DNA of 64,000 bases, taken from positions 1,876 through 65,875 of the forward strand of contig JAFXDO010000048.1 of assembly GCA_017563195.1 (NCBI GenBank), written 5' to 3'. The notes beneath the pieces are model-generated. The model did not search any database, was not told where the DNA came from, and saw only the letters and a program-made list of their open reading frames with translations. The position numbers were made by a program, and so were the translations under genes. The DNA is from Clostridia bacterium. GTDB lineage: Bacteria; Bacillota; Clostridia; Oscillospirales; CAG-382. This document shows, one piece after another, positions 4,472-34,720 of the stretch. How positions within the stretch are numbered: position 1 is the first letter of the stretch; each line of letters opens with the position of its first letter.

Positions 4472-4514
4472 CGTCCCCGAGATGATCCGAGGCTTATTGT
4501 GGGTGCGGTGAGCC

Positions 4515-4949
4515 TTAAAGGTAGCGACGCATCTCGATCGCGAGGTCGTCCTCAAGCTTGATGAGTCGGTTTGCAATCCCCTTCGACTCGCTGTCTGCCG
4601 CCTTGTACTGATTCATATAGCGCTGAAGCGATTTTACACCCATGTTGCAGCCGTCGGTGATAAGGTCGGCTACGGTTTTGTCGGAATCGTCGAGCGCCAT
4701 TTTCACGTTGGTTTTGATCCAGCTCATCCCCTTTGCGGCGGGCGCGGGCTCCTTGCCCTTGTCGCAATGCTCGGACAGCTTTTGCTTGATGTCGGACAAA
4801 AGTATTTCGTGCTGGTTTCTGCAATCCGAAAGATAGGAGCGCATTTGGTCGGATCTTACGTCGGGAAGCACGTCGTTGATCGACGCCACTCCCATTTTCA
4901 CTCCCGCATCACACTCGCGTAACAGCTTTAAGGTATCGTTTTCCTGCAT
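4515..4949 (-). CDS. Cytoplasmic helical protein of unknown function
   Basis: Clean 144-aa ORF with AGGAGGAAAAAT directly before the ATG. No signal peptide; predicted all-helical. Possibly a four-helix bundle, but the family was not recognised with confidence. Confidence 0.55.
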   Translation of the reverse strand: MQENDTLKLLRECDAGVKMGVASINDVLPDVRSDQMRSYLSDCRNQHEILLSDIKQKLSEHCDKGKEPAPAAKGMSWIKTNVKMALDDSDKTVADLITDGCNMGVKSLQRYMNQYKAADSESKGIANRLIKLEDDLAIEMRRYL

Positions 4950-9807: not shown

Positions 9808-9994
9808 CATAATCTCCTTAATTCAAGAATCGTCTGTGATTTTATCACAATTTAATAAATATTGCAAGAGTTTGTTGATTTTTTGAAATTATATAGCTTT
9901 TTTGTTAATCCAAGGTTAATTAATGGGGTCAGCCTCTTGAAATCCCGATAAAAATATGGTATTATATGATGTCAATTTATTATGGAGGAATCAT

Positions 9995-11536
9995 ATGAAG
10001 ACTAAACTTTTTGCGCTTCTCGTCGTTATCTGCCTTCTCGCAGTTCCCTTCTTTGCGGCTTGTGAGAACGACTCCGACGAAAGCAAGGGCACCGCTTCCG
10101 GCGAAGGAATGCAGGGCGAATACCAGAACGCAGACGGCAAATACGTGGGCTCCTACAGCGTAAGCGACTGGAAGGGCGAAACCATCACCTTCCTTACCTG
10201 CAGCGTTAACACCACCTATGAATCCGAAATTCTTTACAACACCTACGAAGACGGCACCACCAAGTCGATGCCCGAGCTTCTTAACGAAAACCTCAAGTTC
10301 CGTTCGGACTTCGTCGAAGAGACTCTCGGCGTAAAGATCAAGGAAATGAAGGTTCACGACACCTCCCGTCCCGGCGGCGGTATGTGCACCGCTATCCGTA
10401 ACGGTAACCTTTCGGCTACCACCGACTACCAGATCGTTGTTCCCTGCCTTTACGACGGCGCTACTCTCGCGGTCGAGGGTCAGCTTCACAACCTTCTCGG
10501 CGAGGATTTTGAAAATCTCCAGATCGAAGCTCCCTGGTGGAACCAGGACTTCAACTCCAATATGACCTTCGGCGGTCAGCTTTACTTCACCATCGGCGAC
10601 CTCGGTACCGTTAACAAGGGCTCGACCGCGGCAATGTTCTTCAACCTCGAGCTTTGGGAAAAGTACGGCCTCTCCGAAACCTACGGCGGCAACCCCTACG
10701 AGCTCGTTCGTGACGGCAAGTGGACGGTTGACACCGTTTTCGAGGCTGCACAGACCATGGGTCAGGACGTAACCAACGACGGCAAGATCGACTACAGCGA
10801 TGAATTCGGCTGGGGCGGTCAGCTTGACGATATGTGGAGCATCTTCTACGCATCCGGCGAAAAGATCGCCAAGAACGGCGCAGACGGATACCCCGAGCTT
10901 TCGATGTACAACGAACGCAGTGCAAAGCTTATGGGCAAGCTTCAGGAATTCGTTCAGGACACCGATCACTACATCTCCGCTAACGACTACTTCGGCGTAG
11001 TTCAGTGGCCCAGCGTGCTTGTTGAAGAAGGCTTTACCGACGGCAGAGCGCTCTTCTACAACGGCAGCGTCGGCACCGTTATCAACCTCGGCGTTATGGA
11101 GCAGCACTTCGGTATACTTCCCCTTCCCAAGGCAGACGCAGAGCAGGAGAACTACTACTCTCTCGTTAACCCCTGGACCTCGACCTGCTTCGCTGTTCCT
11201 ACCTGCGTAAGCGGCGACAGCCTTACTCTCGCTATCGACGTACTTAACGTTATGGGTGCAGAAAGCCTTAACACCGTCGCTCCCAACTATCAGGAAATTC
11301 TCGAATACATGAAGATACGCGACGACGACTCCGCAGACATGCTCAACAACTACATCCTTCCCAACCGCGGATGTGACGTCGGCATGGTCTACAAGTGGGG
11401 CGCACTCGATACCCTTCTTCACGATATGGCTTCGGCAAACGTAGGCACCTTCGCTTCCTCTTACGAAGCAAAGGCTACCGCTGCTCAGAACGATCTTGAA
11501 GAAACCGTATCCTTCTTCGAATCCAACGCTAAATAA
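9995..11536 (+). CDS. Extracellular solute-binding lipoprotein (large family-1 ABC substrate-binding protein), orphan
   Basis: GGAGGAATCAT-ATG at 9995. Lipobox VPFFAAC. About 510 aa with the motifs YQIVVPCLYDG and APWWNQ. Paralog of 54851..56374 and, more distantly, of 24384..25898. No permease or ATPase genes are adjacent. Confidence 0.8.
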   Translation: MKTKLFALLVVICLLAVPFFAACENDSDESKGTASGEGMQGEYQNADGKYVGSYSVSDWKGETITFLTCSVNTTYESEILYNTYEDGTTKSMPELLNENLKFRSDFVEETLGVKIKEMKVHDTSRPGGGMCTAIRNGNLSATTDYQIVVPCLYDGATLAVEGQLHNLLGEDFENLQIEAPWWNQDFNSNMTFGGQLYFTIGDLGTVNKGSTAAMFFNLELWEKYGLSETYGGNPYELVRDGKWTVDTVFEAAQTMGQDVTNDGKIDYSDEFGWGGQLDDMWSIFYASGEKIAKNGADGYPELSMYNERSAKLMGKLQEFVQDTDHYISANDYFGVVQWPSVLVEEGFTDGRALFYNGSVGTVINLGVMEQHFGILPLPKADAEQENYYSLVNPWTSTCFAVPTCVSGDSLTLAIDVLNVMGAESLNTVAPNYQEILEYMKIRDDDSADMLNNYILPNRGCDVGMVYKWGALDTLLHDMASANVGTFASSYEAKATAAQNDLEETVSFFESNAK

Positions 11537-15430: not shown

Positions 15431-15454
15431 ATATAATTGACGAGGGAATAAATT

Positions 15455-17008
15455 ATGGCACTTAAGAATTTAAACGGCAGAAAGGTACGCGAGCTTCTCG
15501 TTTACCCCGACTACACCGACAGAGAGCTCACCGGCAAGCTTACCGGCGGTAACTACTCCGAGGGTCTTGCATCCATCTCGGCGGTAATGAAGCAGGGCGG
15601 TCACGACGTCAAGCTTCTGCACCTGCTCTATCTCCACACCGAGCAGGAATTCAAGGAAAAATTAAAGGCAATGGGCGAATTCGACATTATCGGATTTTCT
15701 ATCCGCACCACCGCGTTCCCCGACAGCCAACTTTACATCAAGTGGGCTAAGGAGGTCCTTCCCGACGCGTTTATAACTGCGGGAAGCTACCATTGCACCC
15801 TCGCGCCCGATGAGGTTATGTCGCTTACCGAAATCGACGCTCTCACCATCGGCGACGGCGAATACGCCGCACTCGAGCTTGCCGACAAGATGAGCGCGGG
15901 CGAGGACTACACCAACATCCTCAGCATGTGGTTCAGAATGGAGGACGGCAGTATCAAGAAGAACCCCGTCGCTCCCCTTTTCGAGGATCTCGACAGACTC
16001 CCCATCCCCGACTTTGATCTTTTCGATTACGATAATCTCGACAGCGTCAAGGTAGGCACGGCGATCGTTATGATGAGCCGCGGCTGCCGCTACAACTGCA
16101 CCTACTGCGGCAACTCGCAGTTCAGAAACGTATACCCCAACAAGAAGATATATTCGCGCTTCCGCTCGCCTCAGAACGGTATCCTTTATCTCAAGACGCT
16201 TCTCGAAAAGCATCCCCAGATCAAGGTCATCAACTTCCGCGACGCTATCTTCAATATGATGCCCGACTGGACCGAGGAATTCCTTGACCTTTACACCAAG
16301 GAGATCCACCTTCCCTTCACCGGTAACATCCGCTTCGACATCCTCACCGAGGACTCGGTACGCAAGATGAAGGAGGCGGGCTGCTACACCATCGATATGG
16401 GCCTCGAAAGCGGCGATCAGGAAATGCGCTTCAAGTACCTCAAGCGCTATATGACCGACGAAATGATAATCAACTGCAGCAAGTGGTTCCACAAATACGG
16501 TATCGCTCAGCTTACCTACAATATAATCGGTCTTCCCTACGAGGATAAGTACCGCGCGCTCAAGACCATCAAGCTCAACGCAAAGGCGGGCGCAGACAGA
16601 GTTATCCCCAACATCTTCTATCCCTACCCCGGAACCAAGCTTTACGATATCGCAATGGAGGGCGGCTTCATCCCCGAGGGCGGCGTTTCGCCCGATGCTC
16701 GCGTTCCCCTCGTTCAGCCCCAGTTCCCCGAGCACGAGGTGCTTTATCTTCAGGCATATTTCGCACACTTCGTGCGCAGATACAAGTGGGCTTACGCTAT
16801 GCCCGAATGGCTCGGCAAGCCTTATGAAAAATGGCTCGATGCAAGAGCGACCGGCAAGCACGTCCCCTACAAGCTGCTCGTCAAGCTTCACGACGGCTAT
16901 TCCAAGGTGCGCAACCGACTCAAGAACATTCTTATCGACCACCTGCCCAAGCTTTATATGAAGCTTCGCGTATGGAAGCACCGCAAGAAGGCTAAAAAAG
17001 TAGACTGA
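15455..17008 (+). CDS. B12-binding-domain radical SAM protein
   Basis: CxxxCxxC box MSRGCRYNCTYCGN, preceded by a Rossmann-like cobalamin-binding N-domain. Confidence 0.85.
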   Translation: MALKNLNGRKVRELLVYPDYTDRELTGKLTGGNYSEGLASISAVMKQGGHDVKLLHLLYLHTEQEFKEKLKAMGEFDIIGFSIRTTAFPDSQLYIKWAKEVLPDAFITAGSYHCTLAPDEVMSLTEIDALTIGDGEYAALELADKMSAGEDYTNILSMWFRMEDGSIKKNPVAPLFEDLDRLPIPDFDLFDYDNLDSVKVGTAIVMMSRGCRYNCTYCGNSQFRNVYPNKKIYSRFRSPQNGILYLKTLLEKHPQIKVINFRDAIFNMMPDWTEEFLDLYTKEIHLPFTGNIRFDILTEDSVRKMKEAGCYTIDMGLESGDQEMRFKYLKRYMTDEMIINCSKWFHKYGIAQLTYNIIGLPYEDKYRALKTIKLNAKAGADRVIPNIFYPYPGTKLYDIAMEGGFIPEGGVSPDARVPLVQPQFPEHEVLYLQAYFAHFVRRYKWAYAMPEWLGKPYEKWLDARATGKHVPYKLLVKLHDGYSKVRNRLKNILIDHLPKLYMKLRVWKHRKKAKKVD

Positions 17009-17860: not shown

Positions 17861-19276
17861 ATGAAAGGGCTTTGGATCAGACTTGTTACAATCATCATAA
17901 CGGCTTGTCTGCTGATCCCGATACCCGTCGTCTCTGCCGAGAACGACGCCGTAAGCATCACGATGAGCTGTGTGGGAAGCCCCTACGCAGGCGGTGAGAT
18001 CGCGCTCAGGGTCACCGTACGGAAGCCTGTATCCGCGCTTGCGGGAATCGAGTTTGTTCTTTCCTACGACCCCGACTCCGTAACACCTACGGTGACGAAA
18101 AGCACCGAGGACGGCGGAGAAATGGACGTGCTTATAAAAACTGCGCCCAAGGGCTGGGAGCAGATGAGCTATCACAGCGAGGGCTACTACCATTTCCGTT
18201 TTGCAATGCCCGATACCGGTGACGAATATCTCGATGCCGACGGCGAGCTCGTGTTGGAGATCCCGTTTGCCGTCGACAAGGCGGGCGAGTTCCTTTTTGA
18301 AATCGCCGATTCCGACGTTATCGCCATCGCGGCAAGCGATCTGACGCCGATGACGGGAAAGGGCGCATCGCTCTCCGTGGTTGCCGCAAGCGAGGCGCAA
18401 AAGCTTGCAATCGGCATATCGAGCGGCGAGATCGCGTACGAGGGCTCGCTTTACTACCTCAAGCTTGACGCGACCAATCTCGGCGACGAAAACGGCATCA
18501 TCGGGCTTGAATTCGATCTCTTTTACGACAAATCGAGCTTTGCCCCGACCGTGACAGACAACAAATCCGAGCAGATGAATTCATTTATGAAGTCGATGCC
18601 GAAGGACTCCTGGGAGCAGATGTGCTCACTCGACGCAGACAAGGGCTGCTACACGATAAGGCTTGCCGCTCTGCACGCCGAGTCGCTTACCGAATGCGAA
18701 TCGCTCGTTTCGGGAAGCAGGCTGACGCTTTCCATTCCCTTCCGCGTCATCGCAAGCGAGGGCAGTATCGCCGATTTTTACGTTGATGCTTCGTCGGTGA
18801 TCGCGTTAAACGGCAATAACAAGATCGTTTCGGGAAGCGGCAGCGCGATTTCGGTCTCGATCGAAAAGGCGACCGAATCGATGATCCCCGAGCATCTCGG
18901 ATACGAGATCAAGGGCAACTACCTGCTAAACGTTTCGGAGCTCACCGAAGTTGCGGAGTTTCTCGCGCCCCTCAGCTCCTACCGACTGACCGACAGCGAC
19001 GGCAATATGGTCATGGGCGGATACGTCTGCACGGGATACGTACTGACCGACGGCGAAACGGCGCTTACCGTCATCGTTCGCGGCGACGGAGACAGATCGG
19101 GCACGGTAGACACCTACGACTACGTGCTCGCGAGACGCGTATATTTCGCAACCTTTTCTCCTTCTCCCGAGCAGCTGCTTGCATTGGCGCTGACAAACGG
19201 CACGAGCGTGACCACCTACGACTATATTCTCATCAGACGCCATTTCTTCGGAACTGTCGATCTGAACAAGGTATAA
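17861..19276 (+). CDS. Secreted protein with two cohesin-like modules and a C-terminal dockerin-like module
   Basis: Signal peptide ending VVSA-EN. There are two modules of about 150 aa with G-x-I-x-L-x-V...GIEFxLxYD (cohesin-like). The C-terminus GDGDRSGTVDTYDYVLARRVYF...NGTSVTTYDYILIRRHFFG resembles a duplicated dockerin Ca-binding repeat whose second copy is degenerate. Confidence 0.5.
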   Translation: MKGLWIRLVTIIITACLLIPIPVVSAENDAVSITMSCVGSPYAGGEIALRVTVRKPVSALAGIEFVLSYDPDSVTPTVTKSTEDGGEMDVLIKTAPKGWEQMSYHSEGYYHFRFAMPDTGDEYLDADGELVLEIPFAVDKAGEFLFEIADSDVIAIAASDLTPMTGKGASLSVVAASEAQKLAIGISSGEIAYEGSLYYLKLDATNLGDENGIIGLEFDLFYDKSSFAPTVTDNKSEQMNSFMKSMPKDSWEQMCSLDADKGCYTIRLAALHAESLTECESLVSGSRLTLSIPFRVIASEGSIADFYVDASSVIALNGNNKIVSGSGSAISVSIEKATESMIPEHLGYEIKGNYLLNVSELTEVAEFLAPLSSYRLTDSDGNMVMGGYVCTGYVLTDGETALTVIVRGDGDRSGTVDTYDYVLARRVYFATFSPSPEQLLALALTNGTSVTTYDYILIRRHFFGTVDLNKV

Positions 19277-24347: not shown

Positions 24348-24383
24348 ATTGTGTAGGAAAAAGCATTGGAAAAGAGGTATTTT

Positions 24384-25898
24384 ATGCTCAGAAGAATCTC
24401 GGCTTTGTTGCTTTGCACGTTACTTTGCATCTCGACCTTGCTTCTCGTTTCCTGTAACAAGGATGGCGGCGAGGGCAGCAATTCGGGAATCAAAGAATTC
24501 GGCTCGGCAAGCGACAAGGGCTTTTTGAACGAACAGATCGACTGGCAGGGTGAAACCATCACCGTCCTCGGCTATAACGGCGAGTTCTCGTATCACTCGA
24601 TTCAGATCGCCACCGAGGAGCAGACCGGCGAGGCTTTGAACGACGCGTTTTACGAAAGAAACGCAAAGATAGAAGAGCTTTTCAACCTCAACATCAAGGT
24701 TGAGCTTCCCGGCACCGGCGAGGACACCGGCGTTATGATAAAGAACGCGGTTCTCGGCAACTCCGCAGACTACGATGCGGTCGTCGCACCCCTGTACATA
24801 TTGGGTCTTTATCTCCCCGAGGATATCTTCCTCGACTTCAACTCGATCGAAAACGATTACCTCCACCTCGACGAGGCTTGGTGGGATCAGGAGCTTCAGA
24901 AGCAGGTTGCGGTCAACGGAAGCGTTTACTTCATCGCAGGTGACGCACTTATCGAGGACGACGAGGCGACCTGGGCAATGTTCTTTAACAAGGATATGTA
25001 CAACTCGAACGCTAACCTCGCGGAGCGCGGAAGCATTTACGACATCGTCAAGAACGGCGAATGGACCCTTGACGTTATGTACGAAATGATCAGCGACGTT
25101 GAGTACTCGACGGGCGAGCAGAAGGTATGGCATCCCGACTCCGAGGACAAGTGGGGTATGGTAACTCAGATGCTCGACTTCTATCTCTTCATGCAGGGCT
25201 GCGGTCAGACTATGATCGACAACACCGGTGACGTTCCCGAGCTTCGCGGCGGCACCGAGGAAAACATCAACACCTTCTATGACGTAGCCGCCGTGCTTCT
25301 CGATGAGGAAAACGTCGGCTGTGCGGAGCTTCACGTAAGCTGGAACGACGGTCACCCCTACCAGATGAAGCGCCAGATATTCGGTAACGGCAACGCGCTC
25401 TTTATGCCGAACCAGCTCGCGGTCATCGGTCAGTCGGAAATAAGCGAGGCGGAGATCAACTACGGTTTGCTCCCCATGCCCAAGAAGAATGAGAATCAGG
25501 AGTACTACACCTCGGGCGTCGAGGTATATCACTACTCTGCAATCGCACTTCCCGCGACTGCACAGGGCAAAAAGCTTGAGGCTACCTGCTATGCACTCGA
25601 GGCGATGGCGTACTACGGAAACCAGATCGTCAACGACGACTACTACGAAAGAACTCTTACCTACAGACGCTTCAAGGACGATGAATCGGGCGATATGCTC
25701 GAGCTTATCCTCAGCAACAAGACCTATGATATGGGCGCGATCTTTAACTTCAAGGGCGGCGAGGGCATGCACGGCACGCTCGGCTTCTACACCGACCTTT
25801 ACATCGAAAAGAGAACCGACATCGTTTCTCACTGGGAAAGCGTAGTCAACTCGTATCAGACCGGCATCAACAAATTCGTTGAGCAATGTAATTCCTAA
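24384..25898 (+). CDS. Extracellular solute-binding lipoprotein, orphan (third paralog)
   Basis: AAGAGG RBS before ATG 24384. Lipobox LLLVSC. Same overall architecture as 9995..11536, but more divergent. Confidence 0.75.
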   Translation: MLRRISALLLCTLLCISTLLLVSCNKDGGEGSNSGIKEFGSASDKGFLNEQIDWQGETITVLGYNGEFSYHSIQIATEEQTGEALNDAFYERNAKIEELFNLNIKVELPGTGEDTGVMIKNAVLGNSADYDAVVAPLYILGLYLPEDIFLDFNSIENDYLHLDEAWWDQELQKQVAVNGSVYFIAGDALIEDDEATWAMFFNKDMYNSNANLAERGSIYDIVKNGEWTLDVMYEMISDVEYSTGEQKVWHPDSEDKWGMVTQMLDFYLFMQGCGQTMIDNTGDVPELRGGTEENINTFYDVAAVLLDEENVGCAELHVSWNDGHPYQMKRQIFGNGNALFMPNQLAVIGQSEISEAEINYGLLPMPKKNENQEYYTSGVEVYHYSAIALPATAQGKKLEATCYALEAMAYYGNQIVNDDYYERTLTYRRFKDDESGDMLELILSNKTYDMGAIFNFKGGEGMHGTLGFYTDLYIEKRTDIVSHWESVVNSYQTGINKFVEQCNS

Positions 25899-25920
25899 AC
25901 AGACTCTTTAAATGCAAATA

Positions 25921-25975
25921 CGGCACACAGTCGAGCAAGCCTTACGGGCAATGCGTCACGGTGTGCCGTTTTTTT
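25921..25975. terminator. Bidirectional terminator closing the SipW/TasA-like operon and the SBP gene
   Basis: Arms cggcacac / gtgtgccg enclose a structured ~32-nt loop. T7 run on the + strand and a moderately U-rich tail on the - strand. Confidence 0.65.
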
Positions 25976-25980
25976 ATATC

Positions 25981-27408
25981 TTAATATTCAGCGGGCATTC
26001 TCTTTGCAACCGCAAGGAGAACCGCTCCGATCAACGCCATCGTCGCCATCGCGATATAGAAGCCGATCATACTCTTGTCGCCCGGCTCTATAGGCTCTTC
26101 AACGACGTGATATACGTTGGTAAATTCGAACACGCTGTCCTCAGCCGCTTCGCCGTTAACGGTTATATCGGCTACGAGTGTGTTATCGACAACGTCTACC
26201 GAAATGACGATCTCATACACGGTGTCGCTGTAGGTCACGCCGACAACATTGCCCTTCTTTTCGCTCAGCTTATAGCTGTACTCGCCGATATCCTCGTGGG
26301 TGAACACGATATCGAGCTTTGCCGCACCGTTTTTATCGGTCACAAGCTCAAGTGTTTCGCCGCTTTCGACGCTTTCAAGGAGGAACACGAAGCCCTCGGG
26401 TCCGATTTCCTTATCGCCCGTATTGTTGACGGTCTTATCGACAGTCACCGTGACGCTGATGTCCTCGGGGTCGGGAACGAAGGTGTTATTGAAGACAACG
26501 TAAAGCTCGTATATATCGTTTTCCTCGTCGTAAGCCGAGGTGACGTTCTGCTTTGCCTCGACCGAAGCGATTTCAAGCTTGCCGTCCATATCGTCATCGC
26601 TTACGCTTATAGCGAAGTAGTTAACCGTCTTGTCGTAATCGACGTTTTCGAGATCCCCCTCGATTTCCGAGATCCTGAAGCTGTAATCGCCGATGTTGCC
26701 GAATTCAAATTCCTGCAGAGCAGCGCTGAGGTTAAATTTGTTATAATCGGCATTTGCGGCATCATACTCAACCTTTGCCGTAGCGAGCTCTGTCCATTCA
26801 CCGTCTACGCTTGCTTCAAGCAGGAATTCGAAGAAGTCGCCCTCTGCCCAGTCTCTGCCCTCGAGCTGCTTTTCGCCCTCAAGGAAGACGTTGTCGAGAG
26901 TGAGCGTCGAAGGAGTGTAAACGTTTATAAAATCAGCCCTTGCGCCGCCGTCGGGAAGGATACTGAGCGTCTGAGTCGACTCGATGCCCTCTTTCAGTGC
27001 AAAGCCGTTGCGCGTCGTGATTTCGGTTACCTTTACCTCGGTGCCCTCTACTATGCCGTCTATTCCGATAGCGCTGTTCGCTGCAAGAGTGACGACGAAG
27101 CTGCCGTCCGAGTCGCACTGTACGACGCCCTTGTCGGTCAAAAGCGTCGTGCCGGAGTAAGCGCTTCCGAGCTCGACCTTGAAGTCAAAGGTAATATCGG
27201 CGGGAATAACGTAATCGTCGCCGTAAGGATGCTCGACGGTTTTGCTGATAACGAGACTGCTTACCGGACTTTTCGTTGGATTGAATATATTTACGATAGA
27301 ATCGGTCTGCGTGACGATAAACGCAAGCGTCGACTGCACTGCAGAGCTGATTATCAGCACGAGTGCAAGTATCATCATTATGCTTTTCTTGCTTCTGATC
27401 CTGTTCAA
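25981..27408 (-). CDS. Pilin-isopeptide-repeat surface protein with SipW-type N-terminal signal and C-terminal membrane anchor
   Basis: TTG start with an AAAGGAG RBS 9 nt upstream. The N-terminus SSAVQSTLAFIVTQTDSIVNIFNP resembles the signals of the upstream genes. The body has one Cna-B-like repeat and two Spy0128/TIGR03786-like repeats (LEGEKQLEGRDWAEGDFFEFLLEA; GPEGFVFLLES...GEYSYKLSEKKGNVVGVTYSDTVYEIVISV...FTNVY). The C-terminus is PGDKS, then a 22-aa hydrophobic helix, then a KR tail. No LPXTG. Confidence 0.6.
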   Translation of the reverse strand: MNRIRSKKSIMMILALVLIISSAVQSTLAFIVTQTDSIVNIFNPTKSPVSSLVISKTVEHPYGDDYVIPADITFDFKVELGSAYSGTTLLTDKGVVQCDSDGSFVVTLAANSAIGIDGIVEGTEVKVTEITTRNGFALKEGIESTQTLSILPDGGARADFINVYTPSTLTLDNVFLEGEKQLEGRDWAEGDFFEFLLEASVDGEWTELATAKVEYDAANADYNKFNLSAALQEFEFGNIGDYSFRISEIEGDLENVDYDKTVNYFAISVSDDDMDGKLEIASVEAKQNVTSAYDEENDIYELYVVFNNTFVPDPEDISVTVTVDKTVNNTGDKEIGPEGFVFLLESVESGETLELVTDKNGAAKLDIVFTHEDIGEYSYKLSEKKGNVVGVTYSDTVYEIVISVDVVDNTLVADITVNGEAAEDSVFEFTNVYHVVEEPIEPGDKSMIGFYIAMATMALIGAVLLAVAKRMPAEY

Positions 27409-27435
27409 AATCGCCTGCTCCTTTCAAGATATTTT

Positions 27436-27497
27436 CGGTGTTCAAGAGATACAAAGCGCGTTTATATCCCTTGAACACCGCCCCTCTTAACGAGGGG
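27436..27497 (-). promoter_or_regulatory. Two-hairpin intercistronic element, copy D
   Basis: Minus-strand RNA: cccctc-gttaa-gagggg, then cggtgttcaag...cttgaacaccg (an 11-bp outer stem plus an 8-bp inner stem). It ends 27 nt before the TTG start at 27408. Confidence 0.6.
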
Positions 27498-27526
27498 TGG
27501 CGGATAGAATCGTCAAATCGAAATGA

Positions 27527-28270
27527 TTATGCCCAGGGGTTGGTAGGAAGACCCGAAGCGGTGAAAGCTTCATCTGCGGTATCAAAGCCGGAAGCCTGAA
27601 CTGCCTGAGCGTATACGGGGATCTTAATACCGTTCGAGAAGTCGTAATTGATAACGGTGTCGCCGAGAGTGTAGTTGGTGCCGTCGAAGTCAACCTTGGA
27701 GTCAAGGTAGAAGCCAACGAATGCTGCGGTGGTGGTGTCGCCTGCAGCGAGGATGCCGCCGTAGGTGAATACGTAAAGGTTGTAATCAACGCCGTCGATT
27801 TCAACAGTCTCAACGCCCTTCCAGGAGTACTGGGTAGCGGGGATTGCATTTTCGCCTTCGGGGATGTACTTGTTGCCAAGGTTCCAGTGAAGTGCGTTGG
27901 TAGCAGCGGACGTGATGGATTCCTCGAGTGCAGCGGGAACTGCAACGATAACGCGAACGTATGCATCGTTTGCGCCGGTGTTTTCAACACTTACGATCTT
28001 GTCAACGTAGTTCTTGGCAACGGGCATACCAAAGGAGTCCTTTTCGCCCTGTGCAGAGCCGACTATGGGCATAAGGAGCTTGTTCTGCTCAAAATCCTCG
28101 AGTGCGGTGCCGTCTTCGTTACGCTGCTGCTCGATAAGATCGATCTGAACGTTACCGATGGTCATAACGTTGATTTCTTCGTCGGTGTCGGTGAGATAAG
28201 CAACGGTGCCTGCGATTGCGAGAGCCGCAACGAGAACGATGCTTACCGTCATAAGCAAATACTTTTTCAT
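27527..28270 (-). CDS. TasA/camelysin-like secreted protein with SipW-cognate signal peptide (247 aa)
   Basis: N-terminus MKKYLLMTVSIVLVAALAIAGTVAYLTDTDEE, then NVMTIGNVQIDLIE. VENTGANDAYVRV motif. C-terminal AQAVQASGFDTADEAF. Confidence 0.75.
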   Translation of the reverse strand: MKKYLLMTVSIVLVAALAIAGTVAYLTDTDEEINVMTIGNVQIDLIEQQRNEDGTALEDFEQNKLLMPIVGSAQGEKDSFGMPVAKNYVDKIVSVENTGANDAYVRVIVAVPAALEESITSAATNALHWNLGNKYIPEGENAIPATQYSWKGVETVEIDGVDYNLYVFTYGGILAAGDTTTAAFVGFYLDSKVDFDGTNYTLGDTVINYDFSNGIKIPVYAQAVQASGFDTADEAFTASGLPTNPWA

Positions 28271-28324
28271 GGTGTTTGCTTCCTTTCTTTATTTTTTTAT
28301 TTTTTCGTACTTTATGCCGTTTTC

Positions 28325-28389
28325 GCGGCAATCAAGAAGCGCAATACGGCTTACGTCCCTTGATTGCCGCCCATCCCCGAGGGGGATGG
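28325..28389 (-). promoter_or_regulatory. Two-hairpin intercistronic element, copy C
   Basis: Minus-strand RNA: ccatcccc-ctc-ggggatgg, then gcggcaatcaag...cttgattgccgc. Confidence 0.6.
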
Positions 28390-28426
28390 TACGGACTTGG
28401 TTGCCTTTTTACACGGATCAACTCGA

Positions 28427-29932
28427 TTAACCGATCAAGTTACCGTCGAGATCATAGTAAACGGAGTCGTTGAAGCCGAAACGAATGGGCTTTGCGCTAT
28501 CGGAAGTATTGTTGTTGTCATAGATGTCCAAATTCAAAGTGGAATCATCCTTGCCTTCCGAAGTATAGTTATGTACCCAGAACACTCTACCGTTATGGAA
28601 ATCGGTATTTTCAATGGTGACGTTGTTCATATCGTAGCCGGAGTTGAAGACACGAACTGCACAGTAGGTGGTTGTGAAATCACAGTTGTTCACATTCAAA
28701 GTAGCTTCGCCCCAGTTGTTCAGGTGAGCAACGAAGTTCATGTCGGTTCCGCTGACATTTGCAGTCACGCCTTCAATATTGAGAACGCCGCCTGCAGTCA
28801 CATCAAAGATAGTAGCCATAGCGTTCCATCCCTGATTGTTTTCAGCAGTTAATTCCAAAGAACCGTTCTTAACAGTCATTTCGCCCTTAACGTTGAAGAG
28901 CTCCTGATTACCGGTAGTATTAGCGGTAGCGGAAATCGTGTAGCCGTTCAGATCAAGAACGACACTCTTGCCCTTGGGAAGAGAGAAGGTAACGTTATCT
29001 ACAGCAATATCATCAGCCAAAACAATGTTGCCACCTGCAGCGAAAGCGGTCTTGAATTCTTCAGCAGTGTATACTACTGCAGGAAAATCAACGCCGCTGA
29101 CCCAAGGATGGTTGTTAGCGGTGATTTCGCCGAATGCTGCGTCGAGAGCGGTAGCAGCATCGTCAAAGCCCTTAGCCTGAACCGCCTGAGAAATAACGAG
29201 GATATCGTAGGTGCCGTTGCCGTTGCCGTCGAGAGCTTCAACGTCTTCGTTGGTTGCTTCGGGCGCCAGATAAACCTGGAGAAGGCTGGGGTACGAAACC
29301 TTGCCTGCAGCGAGGATACCGTTAGGGTTAGAGGTAGCGCCAACATAAGTAGCGGAGACGAGAACGTATTCGCAACCGTCGATTACAACGTCGGTTGCAA
29401 CGGTTTCCCATGCCCAGCGAGTGCTGTCACCGTTGGTTCCGATGATTTCGTCGAATCTTTCAGCGGTAACGCCGCCCTGTTCGAATGCAAAGACAGAACG
29501 AACGTAAGCGTCGGTCTTGCCGGTGTTTTCTACGAAAACAAACTTGTCGATAACGTTCTTTACGCTGTCATCAAAAAGCTGAACCGCGCCGGGAGCACCG
29601 ACCTGTGCCCAAGACTGCTGATAAGTGCCGTTATTGCGGTCGTCCCACTTGATCTGACCGTCAGCGAAAACCGCGGGATAAAGGGGCTTTGCCTGAGTGT
29701 ATTCCTGAAGCTCGTCGGGAGTGTAACCGTACTTATCCACGTCGCCCGTAGATACCCAGTTACCGTTTTCGTCGACAACACGTTCGTATTCGTGCTGTGC
29801 GATCTTAACGTTACCAACAGTCATTACGTTGACGTCGGTAGGAGTTTCGAACTGGAGGTATGCAAGAGTTCCGACAACCGCGAGAGCAGCAACGAGAACA
29901 AAGCTTACCGCCATAAGCAAATACTTTTTCAT
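28427..29932 (-). CDS. TasA/camelysin-like N-domain fused to a C-terminal parallel beta-helix domain (501 aa)
   Basis: SipW-type signal MKKYLLMAVSFVLVAALAVVGTLAYLQFETPTD, then NVMTVGNVKIAQHE. VENTGKTDAYVR. After HPWVSG come repetitive beta-helix rungs of about 22 aa each (LNVNNCDFTTTYCAVRVFN, VTIENTDFHNGRVFWV). Confidence 0.7.
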   Translation of the reverse strand: MKKYLLMAVSFVLVAALAVVGTLAYLQFETPTDVNVMTVGNVKIAQHEYERVVDENGNWVSTGDVDKYGYTPDELQEYTQAKPLYPAVFADGQIKWDDRNNGTYQQSWAQVGAPGAVQLFDDSVKNVIDKFVFVENTGKTDAYVRSVFAFEQGGVTAERFDEIIGTNGDSTRWAWETVATDVVIDGCEYVLVSATYVGATSNPNGILAAGKVSYPSLLQVYLAPEATNEDVEALDGNGNGTYDILVISQAVQAKGFDDAATALDAAFGEITANNHPWVSGVDFPAVVYTAEEFKTAFAAGGNIVLADDIAVDNVTFSLPKGKSVVLDLNGYTISATANTTGNQELFNVKGEMTVKNGSLELTAENNQGWNAMATIFDVTAGGVLNIEGVTANVSGTDMNFVAHLNNWGEATLNVNNCDFTTTYCAVRVFNSGYDMNNVTIENTDFHNGRVFWVHNYTSEGKDDSTLNLDIYDNNNTSDSAKPIRFGFNDSVYYDLDGNLIG

Positions 29933-29974: not shown

Positions 29975-30039
29975 GTGCCGTTTTGCGGCAATCAAGAAGC
30001 GTAATAGTGCTTACGTCCCTTGATTGCCGCCCATCCCCG
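29975..30039 (-). promoter_or_regulatory. Two-hairpin intercistronic element, copy B
   Basis: Minus-strand RNA: cccatcccc-tc-ggggatggg, then gcggcaatcaag-gga-cgtaa-gcacta-ttacg-ctt-cttgattgccgc. Confidence 0.6.
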
Positions 30040-30099
30040 AGGGGATGGGACGGACGTTCTGACTTTTTCCGTTCAGCACGGAATAAGTATAATTTGCAA

Positions 30100-31716
30100 T
30101 TACTGCTCGTGAACGGGAGTTACTTCAACGTTCCATTCGATGGTTTCGTGAACAACCTTACCGCATTCGCAGTAGTACATAGCGGAGTCAGCGCCACCGT
30201 TTTCGATAACGTTGCCTTCACCGTTGATCACGCAGTCGTTGCAGCCGTAGTCAGCGCCTTCGAGCTGGATACCGTAAACGAATGCCTTACCGTTTTCGCC
30301 GGTAACGATGGTGTTGTTGTTGAAGTTGATGATAGCCTTATCGAGCTTGGTTGCGGTGTCAGCCTTTGCGGTGAGCTGAACTGCATAGCGATAGGGATCA
30401 TTGAAGGTGCAGCCTTCAACGGTAACGTTGCCGGTAGCACGGATAGGTCTCTGACCGTTGCAGTTGAACACGCAGTTCTTAACAACGATAGAGGTGCCTT
30501 CGTTGGTGTCCCACCAAGAGGTGATAGCGGTGGAGTTGTTGAGGCTCATATCGAAGGTAACGCCGTTGCAGACAACAGTCTGGTTACCCCAGATTGCGAT
30601 AGCGGACTTGCCGGTCTGCGAGATACCGGTGGAGTCAGCGATGGAATCGTCAACCTTAACGGTAACGCCGTTGAGAGTAAGAGTGCCTGCGGTGCTGGAG
30701 GTAGTAGCGATCTGGCCGGAGAGAACAGCGTTCTTGGAGCCGTTGATGGTTACGTCCTTGCCGCCGTCGAGCTTAAGATTGGTGGTGTATGCGCCATCCT
30801 TAAGATTGACGATAACGTTCTGATTTTCTGCGATTGCAGCTGCGAGCTCGGCAGAGTCAGCTACTTCAACAACTACAGGGAAATATTCCTCTGCGCCGCT
30901 GACCCAAGGATGGTTATTAACGGTGATGTCGCCGAATGCTGCGTCGAGAGCGGTAGCAGCGTCGTCAAAGCCCTTAGCCTGAACTGCCTGAGAAATTACG
31001 AGGATGTCGAAGGTGCCGTTGCCGTTGCCGTCGAGAGCTTCCATATCCTCGTTGGTTGCCTCAGAGCTGAGGTAAACCTGAGAAAGGTTGGGATAGGTGG
31101 TCTCGCCTGCGGGAAGGATGCCGTTGTCATGTCTTACGCCGTCAGCGCCTTTGTAAATATACTCGAGGAGTTCGTAGTTATTGTTGTCGATGGTAACAAC
31201 GCCGATGATGTTACGAGTCCAGTTCATATGGTAGGACGTACCGATGAGAGAGCTGTCGGCAGAACCGATCTCAAGTGCAACGATAGTACGAACGTAAGCA
31301 TCGGTCTTACCGGTGTTTTCAACGGTAACGAACTTATCCTGCGCGTTTTCGGAAACGAAAACCTGCATTCCGCCGTAGGAATCAACCTGAGTCATTCTTA
31401 CGGTAGTAGCATCCCAGGTACCTGCACCGTGGTTAACGGGGTTGCCGTTAGCGTCGATCTCGGTTACGGGCAAAATGGGCTTCGCCTGAGTGAAGTCCTG
31501 AAGCACGTAGCTGGTTACGTTGTCGATCGTTTCGGTCTTGTACGAGCCGTCAGCGTTAACTGCGCGTTCGTATTCGTGCTGTGCGATCTTTACGTTGCCA
31601 ACGGTCATTACGTTGACGTCGGTAGGGGTTTCGAACTGGAGGTATGCAAGAGTTCCGACAACTGCGAGAGCAGCAACGAGAACAAAGCTTACCGCCATAA
31701 GCAAATACTTTTTCAT
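30100..31716 (-). CDS. TasA/camelysin-like N-domain fused to a C-terminal parallel beta-helix domain (538 aa)
   Basis: The first ~50 aa are identical to those of 28427..29932. After HPWVSG the C-terminal half is divergent and carries beta-helix rungs (VVKNCVFNCNGQRPIRATGNVTVEGCTFND, INFNNNTIVTGENG). Confidence 0.7.
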   Translation of the reverse strand: MKKYLLMAVSFVLVAALAVVGTLAYLQFETPTDVNVMTVGNVKIAQHEYERAVNADGSYKTETIDNVTSYVLQDFTQAKPILPVTEIDANGNPVNHGAGTWDATTVRMTQVDSYGGMQVFVSENAQDKFVTVENTGKTDAYVRTIVALEIGSADSSLIGTSYHMNWTRNIIGVVTIDNNNYELLEYIYKGADGVRHDNGILPAGETTYPNLSQVYLSSEATNEDMEALDGNGNGTFDILVISQAVQAKGFDDAATALDAAFGDITVNNHPWVSGAEEYFPVVVEVADSAELAAAIAENQNVIVNLKDGAYTTNLKLDGGKDVTINGSKNAVLSGQIATTSSTAGTLTLNGVTVKVDDSIADSTGISQTGKSAIAIWGNQTVVCNGVTFDMSLNNSTAITSWWDTNEGTSIVVKNCVFNCNGQRPIRATGNVTVEGCTFNDPYRYAVQLTAKADTATKLDKAIINFNNNTIVTGENGKAFVYGIQLEGADYGCNDCVINGEGNVIENGGADSAMYYCECGKVVHETIEWNVEVTPVHEQ

Positions 31717-31768
31717 TGTCTTTGCTTCCTTTCTTTATTTTTTTATTTTTTTGATTTTTTGCCGTTTT

Positions 31769-31831
31769 GCGGCAATCAAGAAGCGTAATAGTGCTTACGA
31801 TCCTTGATTACCGCCTCTCTGTTACAGAGAG
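31769..31831 (-). promoter_or_regulatory. Two-hairpin intercistronic element, copy A
   Basis: Minus-strand RNA: ctctctg-taa-cagagag (different sequence, same hairpin position), then gcggtaatcaag...cttgattgccgc with one G-U pair. Confidence 0.6.
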
Positions 31832-31837
31832 CGGTCA

Positions 31838-32599
31838 TTAATTGTTGAATACCTTTTCGGGGTCGATGCTCGGGAATGCCGCCTCAAGCGCCTCTTCGGC
31901 GGTGAGGTTGCCCATATTATCGGACTGAACAGCCTGCGCCTTGACGTAAATATCGAACGAATCGCCGAAGGACTCGCACATTTCGTTGGTCACAGCCTTG
32001 TCGAGGTAGACCTGCTTGAGCGAGGGTACCGTGGTTTCGCCGGGCTGAACGGGGTTAAGATAGGTTACGACCGCAACTGCGCAGGTGCTGCCGTTTACGT
32101 TATAAAATCCGTCGAGCCATTTCCACTCGCCGATTTCCGACGTGCTGTTCTTATCGTTTACGACAACGTGAATATAGGGATCCGCCACGGCATTTTCGCC
32201 GACCTCTACTGCAATAAGGGTGCGGACGTAGGCGGCGTTGGTGCCGGTATTGGTGACGGTCACGAATTTATCGATAACGCCGGAGTTATCGGCAACGACC
32301 TTCCAAGCAGAGTCGTTGGGAACCACCCATTCATCGGCGGGAGCCCATTCGATGCTGCTTCCGCTGTAATAGGTAGGATAAATGGGGCTGTTTTCATACT
32401 GAACGAGAGTGTGCTCGTTTTCTGTACAATCGACGCGAGCCTGCTCGTTTATGCGGACCTCTACCCTGCCGACGGTGACCACCGAGCCCGAGTTTTCCGC
32501 CTCAGACGAAAGATAAGCCACGGTACCCGCAACCGACAAAGCGGAAACGAGTATAACAGCGAGGAATATTAAAATTAAGCCTTTAACGCCGATTTTCAT
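31838..32599 (-). CDS. TasA/camelysin-like secreted protein with SipW-cognate signal peptide (253 aa)
   Basis: N-terminus LSVAGTVAYLSSEAEN, then SVVTVGRVEVRINE. VTNTGTNAAYVRT. C-terminal AQAVQSDNMG...AEEALEAAF. Confidence 0.7.
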   Translation of the reverse strand: MKIGVKGLILIFLAVILVSALSVAGTVAYLSSEAENSGSVVTVGRVEVRINEQARVDCTENEHTLVQYENSPIYPTYYSGSSIEWAPADEWVVPNDSAWKVVADNSGVIDKFVTVTNTGTNAAYVRTLIAVEVGENAVADPYIHVVVNDKNSTSEIGEWKWLDGFYNVNGSTCAVAVVTYLNPVQPGETTVPSLKQVYLDKAVTNEMCESFGDSFDIYVKAQAVQSDNMGNLTAEEALEAAFPSIDPEKVFNN

Positions 32600-32644: not shown

Positions 32645-33223
32645 TCAGCCGTTTGCCTGATTTGCCTCTGCAAGCGCCCAAGCCTCTGCGGGGGTATCGA
32701 TAGCGTCGATATCGCTATCGCGCTGAACCGCGTATGCAGTGAAGGTGAGCGTGGGCTTTTCGGTCAATGCATTGAGCATTTCCTTGGTGACCTCGTCCTT
32801 GACCTTGACCTTATTATCCTCGAGCACGTAGTATTCGACGTCGCTGTCACTCTTTGTGCTTTCAAGGTAATAAACTCCGACGTAGCCGTCGAGCGGGGTC
32901 CATTCGGAGGACACGGTGTATTCCATAAAGGTCGAAAAATCAGCGGATTCCTCGATCTTGACGAAAACGTAAGCGTTTTCACTTTCCGCGAGGACGGTAA
33001 CGACAGGGTCCTTATCGATAGTCTTGCCGGGTACCATATCGTATTCGTTTATCGAGGGATCGCCGTCGCCGTCGTCGGTTTCCTCAAGCGTTATGTCAAT
33101 GTCACCGTAGGTGAAGGTATTCACAACGGGCTCGGTGGTGTCGCTGAGCCAAGCAACGGTGCCTCCGACAATTCCGCAAAGTATCAAAGCGATAGCGGCG
33201 AACATCAAGGCTGTTCTTTTCAT
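32645..33223 (-). CDS. TasA/camelysin-like secreted protein with SipW-cognate signal peptide (192 aa)
   Basis: N-terminus GIVGGTVAWLSDTTEP, then VNTFTYGDIDITLEE. C-terminal AYAVQRDS...PAEAW. AAGGAGG RBS. Confidence 0.7.
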   Translation of the reverse strand: MKRTALMFAAIALILCGIVGGTVAWLSDTTEPVVNTFTYGDIDITLEETDDGDGDPSINEYDMVPGKTIDKDPVVTVLAESENAYVFVKIEESADFSTFMEYTVSSEWTPLDGYVGVYYLESTKSDSDVEYYVLEDNKVKVKDEVTKEMLNALTEKPTLTFTAYAVQRDSDIDAIDTPAEAWALAEANQANG

Positions 33224-33238: not shown

Positions 33239-33892
33239 TTACTTAATTTCTTCTTCGAACGCAGACCATGCCTCATCGGCGTTTCCTTCAAAGCCCGACG
33301 CCTGTATCGCGTGTGCCTCGAAGATGATCCTCAATCCCGAGAGAGTCTTGATCTGTTCGTTGTTTATATCACCCGAAAGCGTGATCGAGGTGATGAAGGG
33401 CTCGAGCGGAATTTCGTCCTGAGTCGAATTTCCTGCGATTTTATAATAGCGATATTCGTAATACGCGCTTCCGTCTTCGTTAAGCGTTTCCGAAACGTAC
33501 TGCCAAACGTTCGCATCATAGCCTGTTGCGAAATCGGTCGGCTTAAAATCGTCACCGTAGATCGTCTTAAGATCGCGTGCCTTATTCACGGTCACGATGA
33601 GTCTGATATAGGATTCCTCGCTGTTTGTAAGCAGCGTAACGGTAGGATCCATCGCATAGGTTCTGCCGGGGAGAAGATGGTAGTCGTTCGCCTTCACTCG
33701 CTCCGCACCGGGAACAAGCGTGCCGTCGCTGTTGGCTTTGGCCTCGTCAAGCTTGATATCGACCTTGCCGACGGTAAATATGTTCGTGGCAGAATCGTCA
33801 TCGATCATCACCATAAGCGTTGCAGATACCGCACAAATAAGCAGCAATATCGCACAAACCGATGCAACGATTATCTTTGTCGAGCTTTTCAT
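33239..33892 (-). CDS. TasA/camelysin-like secreted protein with variant SipW-type signal (217 aa)
   Basis: N-terminus ICAVSATLMVMIDDDSAT, then NIFTVGKVDIKLDE. C-terminal AHAIQASGFEGNADEAWSAF. AGGAAAGGAG RBS. Confidence 0.65.
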   Translation of the reverse strand: MKSSTKIIVASVCAILLLICAVSATLMVMIDDDSATNIFTVGKVDIKLDEAKANSDGTLVPGAERVKANDYHLLPGRTYAMDPTVTLLTNSEESYIRLIVTVNKARDLKTIYGDDFKPTDFATGYDANVWQYVSETLNEDGSAYYEYRYYKIAGNSTQDEIPLEPFITSITLSGDINNEQIKTLSGLRIIFEAHAIQASGFEGNADEAWSAFEEEIK

Positions 33893-33949: not shown

Positions 33950-34531
33950 TTAAATTTGTTGGTTCTCTTCGGATTTTTCTTCGGTTTTTTCGGCTTCCCG
34001 GCCGCCGTTTTCCTCGCCGTCGTGCTTTTTGATGTAGTCCGAGACAACGTCCACGAGCATTACGAACAGCACCAGCGCAATTCCGACCGCAATAGCCAGA
34101 TATACGCCGGGGGGCGACTGAATATAGGTTGCGAGATAGCCCAAAAGCGGCAAGCCGAAGACAGCCTTGCCCACTATCTTGCTTTCGTGGACCGGTGCCG
34201 AATCGGGCACGTCGTTGGCTACGCCCTGCGTGCGGAACCACAGCTCGGTCGGGTTACTTTCGTCGGGGTAGATTTCGATGATACGGTGGGTCGCCGTCTG
34301 CGTCGCGGTAATATTGAAGGTGATATCGTCGCCGACCTCGAGCGACTGCGGCTCGACCTGCTTTACGTAGATCAACCCGCCCGTGTGATATTCGGGCTCC
34401 ATCGAGCCTGAAAGCACGGTGTATACCTCGAAGCCGAGCAGCTTCATTCCGACAAGCAGAAACGCCAGCAAAACGACCACCGCAACCAAAACGTATGCAA
34501 TTACCTTAAGCGTGGTGCCCAAATACTTCAT
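33950..34531 (-). CDS. sipW: Signal peptidase I, SipW (archaeal/ER-type S26B) subclass
   Basis: The YTVLSGSMEPEYHTGGLIYV catalytic Ser box and the THRIIE His box are typical of SipW-type enzymes. It has N- and C-terminal TM helices and a charged tail. The start is ambiguous: I prefer ATG 34531 (MKYLGTT). In-frame ATGs at 34573 and 34648 lack a convincing RBS or lie upstream of the predicted promoter. Confidence 0.8.
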   Translation of the reverse strand: MKYLGTTLKVIAYVLVAVVVLLAFLLVGMKLLGFEVYTVLSGSMEPEYHTGGLIYVKQVEPQSLEVGDDITFNITATQTATHRIIEIYPDESNPTELWFRTQGVANDVPDSAPVHESKIVGKAVFGLPLLGYLATYIQSPPGVYLAIAVGIALVLFVMLVDVVSDYIKKHDGEENGGREAEKTEEKSEENQQI

Positions 34532-34585
34532 AATAAATATATGCTTTCTCCGCAAAAGGGGAAAATCCCCCATATTCCAAAGTGT

Positions 34586-34614
34586 ATGATAACACTTTCC
34601 CAACACTTTTTCAA
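34586..34614 (-). promoter_or_regulatory. Sigma-A-type promoter of the sipW/TasA-like operon
   Basis: On the minus strand: TTGAAA, 17 nt, then TGtTATCAT (extended -10). Confidence 0.6.
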
Positions 34615-34720
34615 GAGGAAAAGGAAAAAAAGAAAGGGTTTTGTTCATCTTTTTTTAACATTTTTTGACTTTTCGGCGAATTTAACCGTTTCTTATCCGA
34701 GGAACGGTCGAAAAGACCTG

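Follow-up and report, generated by a model that had tools for sequence, protein, structure and literature searches.

A candidate cell-proximal anchor and nucleator stalk for SipW-dependent TasA-like fibres in a Clostridia bacterium

There is as yet no settled view of how cells hold on to matrix fibres of the TasA type. TasA fibres assemble by donor-strand exchange, and the N-terminus of TapA has been proposed to supply the first donor strand (PMC9674648). In BsaA of Clostridium perfringens, the strand is locked by an isopeptide bond between Asn35 and Lys74, which is catalysed by Glu56; the triad is kept in more than 100 homologues of Clostridia (PMC11580942). The role of TapA is partly understood, and BsaA fibres are membrane-associated. 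We here describe a gene of an uncultured gut Clostridia bacterium (Oscillospirales, CAG-382; assembly GCA_017563195.1) whose product may be such an attachment device. It occupies 25981..27408 on the minus strand of a stretch of 64,000 nucleotides (positions 1,876 to 65,875 of contig JAFXDO010000048.1), which is called the window in the following, and encodes 475 residues. Upstream, on the same strand, lie in this order sipW and six genes for proteins with SipW-type N-termini (217, 192, 253, 538, 501 and 247 residues; here t1 to t6); the gene under study is the last of this operon. In our judgement the chances are about even that its product is the cell-proximal anchor and nucleator stalk, similar to TapA, of a SipW-dependent fibre built by donor-strand exchange from TasA/BsaA-like subunits.

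Several described systems come close. TapA, encoded in the tapA-sipW-tasA operon of Bacillus subtilis, is likewise an accessory protein encoded together with SipW and the fibre subunit; it is processed by SipW, and its N-terminal residues resemble the donor strand of the subunit, as those of the present protein appear to do. Sequence or domain similarity between the two was not detected, and to our knowledge TapA has neither isopeptide domains of the Spy0128/FctA type nor a C-terminal helix or sorting signal. TasA fibres also lack an isopeptide lock, in contrast to the BsaA-type lock that is proposed here. TasA/BsaA genes often occur in operons with genes for LPxTG proteins, SpaA-domain proteins, signal peptidases and sortases, and a BsaB homologue that bears LPXTG has been speculated to anchor BsaA by way of SrtB (PMC11580942). 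Bacterial AbpX clusters contain LPXTG anchors for which AlphaFold 3 predicts donor-strand complexes with the fibre subunits (bioRxiv 10.64898/2026.01.04.697558). The BsaB homologue (C. perfringens ATCC 13124) and the LPXTG anchor of the Clostridium amylolyticum AbpX cluster share with our protein the SipW/signal-peptidase operon beside subunits of the TasA superfamily; both have a C-terminal sortase-type signal and are proposed fibre tethers. The BsaB homologue, however, is itself TasA-like and has srtB beside its operon, whereas the body of our protein is a three-domain stalk of the FctA type; in its family a sortase is almost never linked, and the lineage of the window lacks the Thr of the sorting motif. 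In Bacillus cereus, the sortase-independent TasA/CalY fibre has an accessory factor encoded in its operon, CapP (BC_1280), which is located in the cell wall, associates with a subunit and is described as a chaperone-like modulator of polymerisation (PMC13082335). Homology to our protein was not detected, and neither an isopeptide stalk nor a C-terminal anchor is described for CapP. A description of an FctA-type stalk with a SipW/donor-type N-terminus was not found in the literature.

The mechanism that we favour is as follows. The protein would be exported and its signal cut after A29 by the SipW of the operon. The freed strand F30-P44 would insert into a TasA-like subunit at its acceptor groove, in the manner proposed for TapA, and may be locked there through N40 by an Asn-Lys isopeptide of the BsaA type. 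Three immunoglobulin-like domains of the Spy0128/FctA type would act as a rigid stalk through the wall, while a C-terminal helix with a basic tail would serve as its membrane anchor. The motif P-x-T-G-D of most homologues would enable a housekeeping sortase encoded elsewhere to transfer the stalk to peptidoglycan; in the lineage of the window the Thr is lost (E-P-G-D), and the stalk most likely remains a membrane anchor. Since the protein has a donor strand but no acceptor domain, it could only cap the groove end of the fibre, and such a cap combined with a C-terminal anchor would imply a cell-proximal place and outward growth, as in the TapA model. A preliminary description of the window had already considered a membrane-anchored base or stalk for the TasA-like fibre. 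The terminal place in the operon, the N-x-F strand, the triads and the membrane helix, all discussed below, speak for this idea, which we favour; the preliminary interpretation as a whole is partly supported.

The reading frame is well defined. TTG at 27408 is its start codon, as had been proposed; a Shine-Dalgarno sequence, AGGAG, is found at 27418..27422 of the minus strand (read from 27422 to 27418), 9 nt before it. An ATG at codon 11, used in the gene call of the near-identical homologue P0002 in one assembly, was rejected: it is not preceded by a Shine-Dalgarno sequence, and this start would drop a basic n-region that is common to all homologues. The protein was modelled with AlphaFold2 on an alignment of 93 sequences. 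The model has a mean predicted local distance difference test (pLDDT) score of 88 and comprises a helix (residues 3-34), a disordered segment (35-47), three beta-sandwiches (52-164, 174-310 and 317-433) and a C-terminal helix (445-470).

The connection to the fibre subunits starts at the N-terminus. Residues 1-29 (27322..27408) consist of a basic n-region and a hydrophobic helix. A custom hidden Markov model (HMM), built from the N-termini of TasA-like proteins of related loci only, was searched against 4,440 open reading frames (ORFs). It matches residues 6-42 with E = 2.9e-7, in line with the earlier remark that this N-terminus resembles the SipW-type signals of the six upstream genes. The latter are all matched (E 3.5e-27 to 4.9e-13), and at E < 1 the model also recognises 54 of 60 members of the family. 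For other ORFs of the database that have ordinary signal peptides, E values are at least 1.9. Among 21 giant FctA adhesins, the model recognises a single one (L058), which itself resides in a SipW operon; the other 20, outside SipW operons, have ordinary signal peptides and no match. By analogy with GTWA/AF of TasA and GTVA/WL of the neighbours (the slash marks the cut), SipW-type cleavage is predicted after S-T-L-A29, before F30. The similarity does not end there. It extends beyond the predicted cut into FIVTQTDSIVNIFNP, residues 30-44 (27277..27321), the candidate donor strand. Here F42 is invariant, and N40 and P44 are conserved in at least 90% of the 93 aligned sequences, on a par with core residues. 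Residues 35-47 are disordered in the model of the monomer (pLDDT < 50), as donor strands likewise are. Counted from the predicted cut, N40 is at position 11 and F42 at position 13, which is also the register of N35 and F37 in t2, and the pattern T-x-A/[FYW]-[ILV] ... N-x-F is common to both proteins.

The position of the gene is equally constant. More than 160 homologues are found in metagenome-assembled genomes (MAGs) of Clostridia, Oscillospiraceae and Acutalibacteraceae from gut and rumen (about 167 clusters at 50% clustering and E <= 1e-10 among 1.84 billion representatives); their database annotation reads hypothetical or 'FctA domain-containing'. Relatives keep the gene order: sipW, t1 and t2 come first, then larger TasA-like genes, of which there are one to five, and lastly the stalk gene. 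TasA-like genes lie upstream on the same strand at 49 of the 51 family loci with more than 1.5 kb of upstream sequence, directly adjacent at 46 of these 49, and where the upstream sequence exceeds 8 kb, sipW is part of it at 29 of 32 loci. None of the family loci has TasA-like genes on the downstream side of the stalk gene. The terminal place that the preliminary description had noted in the window is, hence, a property of the family.

Of course, the protein could be an independent surface stalk or adhesin that shares the operon and export by SipW, the N-terminal motif being a SipW determinant and strand exchange not taking place. Such a role would suit the facts that the similarity seen by the TasA-derived HMM includes the signal peptide itself and that the protein is devoid of any TasA-like domain (neither the Pfam scan nor the AlphaFold2 model reveals a jelly-roll of this kind). 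Yet N40, F42 and P44 are conserved 11-15 residues past the cut, which is beyond the needs of a signal peptidase obeying the -3/-1 rule, and the register of N-x-F, counted from the cleavage site, equals that of the fibre subunits. The stalk gene, moreover, is strictly the last one in such operons, and precedents exist in TapA (PMC9674648) and in the LPXTG anchors (bioRxiv 10.64898/2026.01.04.697558). We consider an independent stalk improbable.

The body of the protein is made up of three domains: domain 1, residues 52-164 (26917..27255); domain 2, residues 174-310 (26479..26889); and domain 3, residues 317-433 (26110..26460). Their borders are those of the beta-sandwiches in the AlphaFold2 model. 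Pfam assigns DUF7601 to residues 51-163, that is domain 1. The FctA/Spy0128-like family PF12892 is matched in two stretches (61.9 bits, cut-off 22.1), domains 2 and 3, and domain 3 also corresponds to the streptococcal pilin isopeptide domain TIGR03786 of NCBIfam (57.4 bits, cut-off 31.85). Cna_B did not match in the domain scan, and therefore 'Spy0128/FctA-type' is the accurate label; of the Cna-B/Spy0128-type repeats of the preliminary description, the second half of the name stands and the first does not. A Foldseek search of the Protein Data Bank (PDB) with the model retrieved T-antigen/Spy0128, PitA/PitB, SpaC and FctB (E 5e-13 to 1e-6), with a template modelling (TM) score of 0.72 for one domain against the basal pilin FctB.

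Each domain also contains the residues of an isopeptide triad. K56/N162, K180/E248/N308 and K325/E383/N431 are invariant in the 93-sequence alignment; E129 of domain 1 is conserved in at least 90% of the sequences, not invariant. In every domain of the model, the first strand carries the Lys, the last strand the Asn and an internal strand the Glu; the structure prediction that had been suggested for locating triads thus puts all three on the expected strands. A lack of triads in the repeats, which the preliminary description had named among the findings that would speak against it, is not observed. When the family profile is aligned with PDB sequences, E383 and N431 have as their counterparts in the T-antigen the Glu of YRYTVSE and the Asn of LFKN, which we take to be the catalytic Glu117 and the isopeptide Asn168 of Spy0128. 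At the level of sequence and model, the three domains are of the Spy0128/FctA type with Lys/Glu/Asn triads, and these triads suggest that isopeptide bonds would form in them.

A fold and triads as in Spy0128/FctA and FctB inevitably raise the question of a conventional sortase-polymerised pilin, be it a backbone or a basal subunit. FctB is the basal, wall-anchoring pilin of Streptococcus pyogenes; like Spy0128, it has a signal peptide of the ordinary kind, and a dedicated sortase encoded next to these pilins links them Thr-to-Lys. Spy0128 (FctA/T-antigen) and FctB share the fold of our protein, and Glu and Asn of its domain 3 align, but there are several differences. The N-terminus is of the SipW type with a donor-like strand, not an ordinary signal; a regular-expression (regex) search found neither the YPKN pilin motif, which would hold the linking Lys, nor a canonical E-box; the gene invariably forms part of a TasA-like operon; and an adjacent pilus-specific sortase is missing in the window as well as at 60 family loci, save for one (L036) where a sortase is located 3.4 kb downstream. 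The protein is not a sortase-assembled pilin; the chance that it is one after all appears minute.

The C-terminus is more ambiguous. The protein ends with ...VVEEPIEPGDKS, followed by the 22 hydrophobic residues M447-A468 and by KRMPAEY. Residues 439-446, PIEPGDKS (26071..26094), are aligned with the site where homologues have x-P-x-T-G-D-[ND]-S, with the Thr missing; residues 447-468 (26005..26070) are a hydrophobic transmembrane helix, as judged from the sequence and the AlphaFold2 helix 445-470; residues 469-475 (25984..26004) are a short basic tail, predicted to be cytoplasmic. The tripartite architecture that had been described for this tail, PGDKS, helix and KRMPAEY, is evident. TIGR01167 (LPXTG_anchor) scores the tail with 12.7 bits, just under the cut-off of 15.9; the motif reads P-I-E-P-G-D. 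Strictly speaking, the protein is not an LPXTG protein: the motif is absent.

The family tells a different story. Its consensus at the site is x-P-[PQ]-T-G-D-[ND]-S-N, followed by helix and basic tail. Out of 163 non-redundant C-termini, 113 (69%) have T-G, 88 of them in the form P-x-T-G; in 24, the residue after P-x-T is not Gly but, for example, S, A, D, N or R; six have P-G-D without Thr; the remainder are other variants or truncated. The six Thr-less tails belong to our protein, to the near-identical P0001 and P0002 and to P0007, P0010 and P0012, which are 49-52% identical to it; in this clade P439, P442, G443 and D444 are invariant, the form being P-[IV]-[DE]-P-G-D. Two metagenome scans yielded no further member of the clade. 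A second, more diverse set, 145 representatives at 50% clustering obtained with residues 1-170 as query, gave a similar picture: T-G is present in 78 of 106 representatives having helix and basic tail (74%), and P-G-D was seen in two more proteins, P0257 and P0266. The giant FctA-repeat adhesins of the same taxa (Oscillospiraceae and Acutalibacteraceae MAGs, such as L063 and L079) resemble our protein in having FctA domains and a tail of P-x-T-G-D, helix and basic residues; they differ from it by their size of 2,000-4,000 residues, their ordinary signal peptides and their location outside SipW operons. As one of them (L079) sits beside a verified sortase, P-x-T-G-D must be regarded as the local LPXTG-type sorting signal. 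PGDKS, being aligned with the x-P-x-T-G-D of the family, thus derives from a genuine sortase signal by loss of the Thr and is not an unrelated motif. The earlier statement that the C-terminus lacks LPXTG holds for the protein but not for its family, and the alignment of homologues that had been recommended reveals P-G-D as invariant in the Thr-less clade, with x-P-x-T-G-D as the family consensus.

Two other interpretations depend on this tail. The first one sees the protein still as a sortase substrate: an unlinked housekeeping sortase would accept P-x-x-P-G-D and fix the stalk, together with its fibre, covalently to peptidoglycan. The tripartite sortase-type signal throughout the family and the P-x-T-G-D of adhesins from the same taxa would fit, as would the absence of sortases from 58 of 60 family loci, since a housekeeping sortase is usually encoded apart from the proteins that it anchors. 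That P-G-D is invariant in the Thr-less clade and appears again in P0257 and P0266 suggests constraint. The Gly position varies, too, in 10-15% of the members (T-S-D, T-A-D, T-D-D), presumably in a similar way as in the LPQTxE motif of Lactobacillus plantarum. The Thr of a sorting signal, however, supplies the carbonyl that is attacked by the sortase Cys, and precisely this Thr is missing; we know of no characterised sortase that cleaves after Pro. TIGR01167 remains below threshold, and 64 kb of sequence contain no sortase. We rate this interpretation as unlikely. Because the Thr that sortases acylate is lost, membrane retention is the simplest reading of the tail.

The second interpretation, put forward in the preliminary description, invokes a non-canonical sorting enzyme encoded elsewhere that reads P-G-D. 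In its favour one may cite the conservation of P-G-D in the Thr-less clade and a weak match of the C-terminal 44 residues to C-termini of S-layer glycoproteins of the ArtA/PGF-CTERM type (E = 0.03, 12.5 bits). These matches are far under the cut-offs (400 bits) and reflect just a helix and a basic tail. NCBIfam scans of the protein, of eight homologues and of the isolated C-terminal 44 residues (E <= 10) disclosed nothing but sub-threshold LPXTG_anchor and PGF-CTERM-type tails, without a match to any sorting-domain model. An archaeosortase/PGF reading of the tail was rejected, the alignment showing PGD to be PxTGD minus Thr. Nor is there an extra enzyme in the operon at any of about 50 loci; that of the window holds only SipW, the TasA-like proteins and the stalk. 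A dedicated enzyme of this kind is very improbable, and the suggestion is not retained.

The claim that no sortase is nearby withstood five checks. In the 64-kb window, none was found by a regex of the TLxTC type or by jackhmmer seeded with the verified L079 sortase. None is listed in the precomputed Pfam annotation of the same 83-kb contig, which covers 22.6-64 kb of the window, or in that of a contig with the same gene set, taken to be near-identical, which covers 7.3-23 kb; hmmscan of ORFs of at least 220 residues found none at 1-7 kb. At 82 related loci, inspected with flanks of up to 10 kb, sortases are present only at L079, where the gene adjoins the giant adhesin, and at L036, where a Pfam-verified sortase lies downstream of a stalk fusion. 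L036 is also the one operon locus of the family with a sortase within 10 kb. This rarity argues against a pilus-type, sortase-linked assembly and is compatible with an unlinked housekeeping sortase. The preliminary description had named a canonical LPXTG variant with an adjacent sortase in relatives as a finding that would speak against a membrane anchor; the LPXTG variant does exist, the adjacent sortase, apart from L036, does not.

The proposed lock at N40 can be compared with the subunits themselves. In the t2 family N35, F37, G40, E48, K71 and E82 are invariant; in the t1 family N37 and E50 are invariant and K81 is nearly so. The N-x-F, Glu and Lys of the t1 and t2 families resemble the N35-E56-K74 lock of BsaA, which makes a lock through N40 possible, and Lys81 of the t1 family is a candidate acceptor. 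One may go one step further and imagine a covalent, sortase-independent pilus: an isopeptide between N40 and a Lys of the subunit would create an unbroken covalent chain from the membrane anchor via three internally cross-linked stalk domains to the locked fibre, and the Thr-less P-G-D lineages would have given up sortase transfer. We consider this extended version doubtful.

Several observations do not favour an anchor and nucleator stalk, or at least restrain our enthusiasm for it. We infer the insertion of the strand and the lock at N40 from motif similarity and from published analogues, and the shared N-terminal motif could mean SipW recognition alone. TIGR04088, the curated model of SipW-cognate signals, does not match the protein at E <= 0.1. 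The t1 of the window has Met at position 81, where at least 90% of its family have Lys; with t3 lacking N-x-F, not every subunit of the window may be lockable. The structural evidence on the subunits is also modest. The model of t2 has a pLDDT of 82. Its best Foldseek hit is the archaeal bundling pilin 7UEG (probability 0.89); against the TasA fibre 8AUR the TM score is 0.44 (probability 0.80), and donor-strand-complemented chaperone-usher subunits were also matched. These fold matches are weak (best E = 3.8e-3), even though they point to the right superfamily, that of TasA, and single-sequence searches of the PDB with t2 and t6 returned nothing meaningful. P-G-D, conserved in the Thr-less clade and recurring in P0257 and P0266, could still function and need not be decayed. 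Finally, the sortase searches in this genome cover the 64-kb window.

The other members of the operon, all on the minus strand, may be described briefly. The SipW-type signal peptidase I (33950..34648) is identified by TIGR02228 (93.3 bits, cut-off 51.85). Its ORF comprises 232 residues; the called gene has 201 and probably starts at 34555. Within the longer ORF, at 34614..34586, TTGAAA-17-TATCAT, preceded by TG, resembles a promoter; located 31 nt upstream of the 34555 start, it is a candidate for the operon promoter. The six subunits are classified as TasA-like by the N-terminal HMM, t2 also by its model and conservation. t1 (33239..33892) has ATNIF in its N-terminal strand. t2 (32645..33223) is identical to a protein that NCBI calls 'SipW-dependent-type signal peptide-containing protein'. 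t3 (31838..32599) is the one whose N-terminal strand is devoid of N-x-F. t4 (30100..31716) is a paralogue of t5 (28427..29932), in which a TasA-like N-terminal part is followed by a C-terminal extension; t6 (27527..28270) has a SipW-cognate signal by TIGR04088 (21.7 bits, cut-off 19). The first approximately 50 residues of t4 and t5 are identical and their upstream regions nearly so, which suggests a recent duplication. In the strain variant L084, a single gene for 495 residues (3290..4777) replaces both; the copy number of the large subunit therefore varies between strains.

Some relatives deviate from the common scheme. L036 contains an ORF of 617 residues (9455..11308) in which a t1-like TasA domain is joined to the stalk at about residue 49; it has a SipW-type N-terminus of its own, sipW immediately upstream and the aforementioned sortase at 14705..16102. 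As Rosetta-stone evidence this fusion was given little weight, for its TasA-like part lacks the last conserved strand and may be the result of a deletion. At L003 (12072..21407), L004 (12050..21350) and L047 (8253..15494), a giant FctA-repeat adhesin of 2,400-3,100 residues with an ordinary signal peptide is encoded directly downstream of the stalk gene.

In the window, the operon is followed by a gene on the plus strand (24366..25898) for a predicted lipoprotein of 510 residues (...LLVSC/NKDGG) without Pfam match, which is inserted between the operon end and a gene of the metallo-beta-lactamase fold. In L084 and the syntenic L001, there is no gene between the latter and the stalk gene. Farther away, at 17861..19276 (plus strand), a secreted protein of 471 residues with cohesin-like repeats is encoded; in the syntenic L001 it also has a dockerin match, which suggests that the organism has surface components of the cellulosome type.

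Two kinds of non-coding elements deserve mention. At the 3' end of the stalk gene, with a convergent gene beyond it, a long hairpin ACGGCACAC ... GTGTGCCGT is read from the sequence at 25920..25975, or at 25920..25969 without the flanking T/A runs; it has a T-run on the plus strand and an A-run/ATTTGCATTT on the minus strand, and is probably a bidirectional terminator between the convergent genes. A simple hairpin scan missed it because its loop exceeds 8 nt. The second element consists of two hairpins and is present in four copies on the minus strand (31837..31760, 30048..29985, 28394..28317 and 27502..27436). Its occurrence is limited to the regions before the four final operon genes, and the stalk gene does have its own copy, as had been stated. 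In three copies, two hairpins, one GC-rich and the other longer, are enclosed by a short outer stem; the copy of the stalk gene shows no evident closing stem of this kind. Minimum free energy z-scores range from -5.6 to -6.8, the core GGCGGNRWTCAAGG is matched four times versus 0.27 expected, and the stems vary between copies with compensatory changes. L001 and L004, too, each have the exact core pattern upstream of a gene of the TasA-like kind. An Rfam scan of 24-36 kb gave no match by E-value; the element is therefore not a described RNA family. Possibly, it acts on the processing or stability of the mRNA and thereby sets the ratios of the subunits.

As an accessory anchor of TasA-superfamily fibres, the protein would belong to a concept that is not entirely new: LPXTG anchors for TasA-like clusters have already been discussed in two preprints. 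With the hosts being uncultured and the general idea already in print, the practical value is modest. The proposal does make predictions: cleavage between A29 and F30, N40-dependent heteromers with a TasA-like subunit, and a membrane or wall location that is set by PGD versus PxTGD. If it is correct, the stalk family would be a concrete and widespread candidate for the anchor of TasA-type fibres in gut and rumen Clostridia, and a single polypeptide would join two paradigms of Gram-positive fibres: the isopeptide stalk with its sorting signal and the donor-strand N-terminus of the SipW/TasA type.

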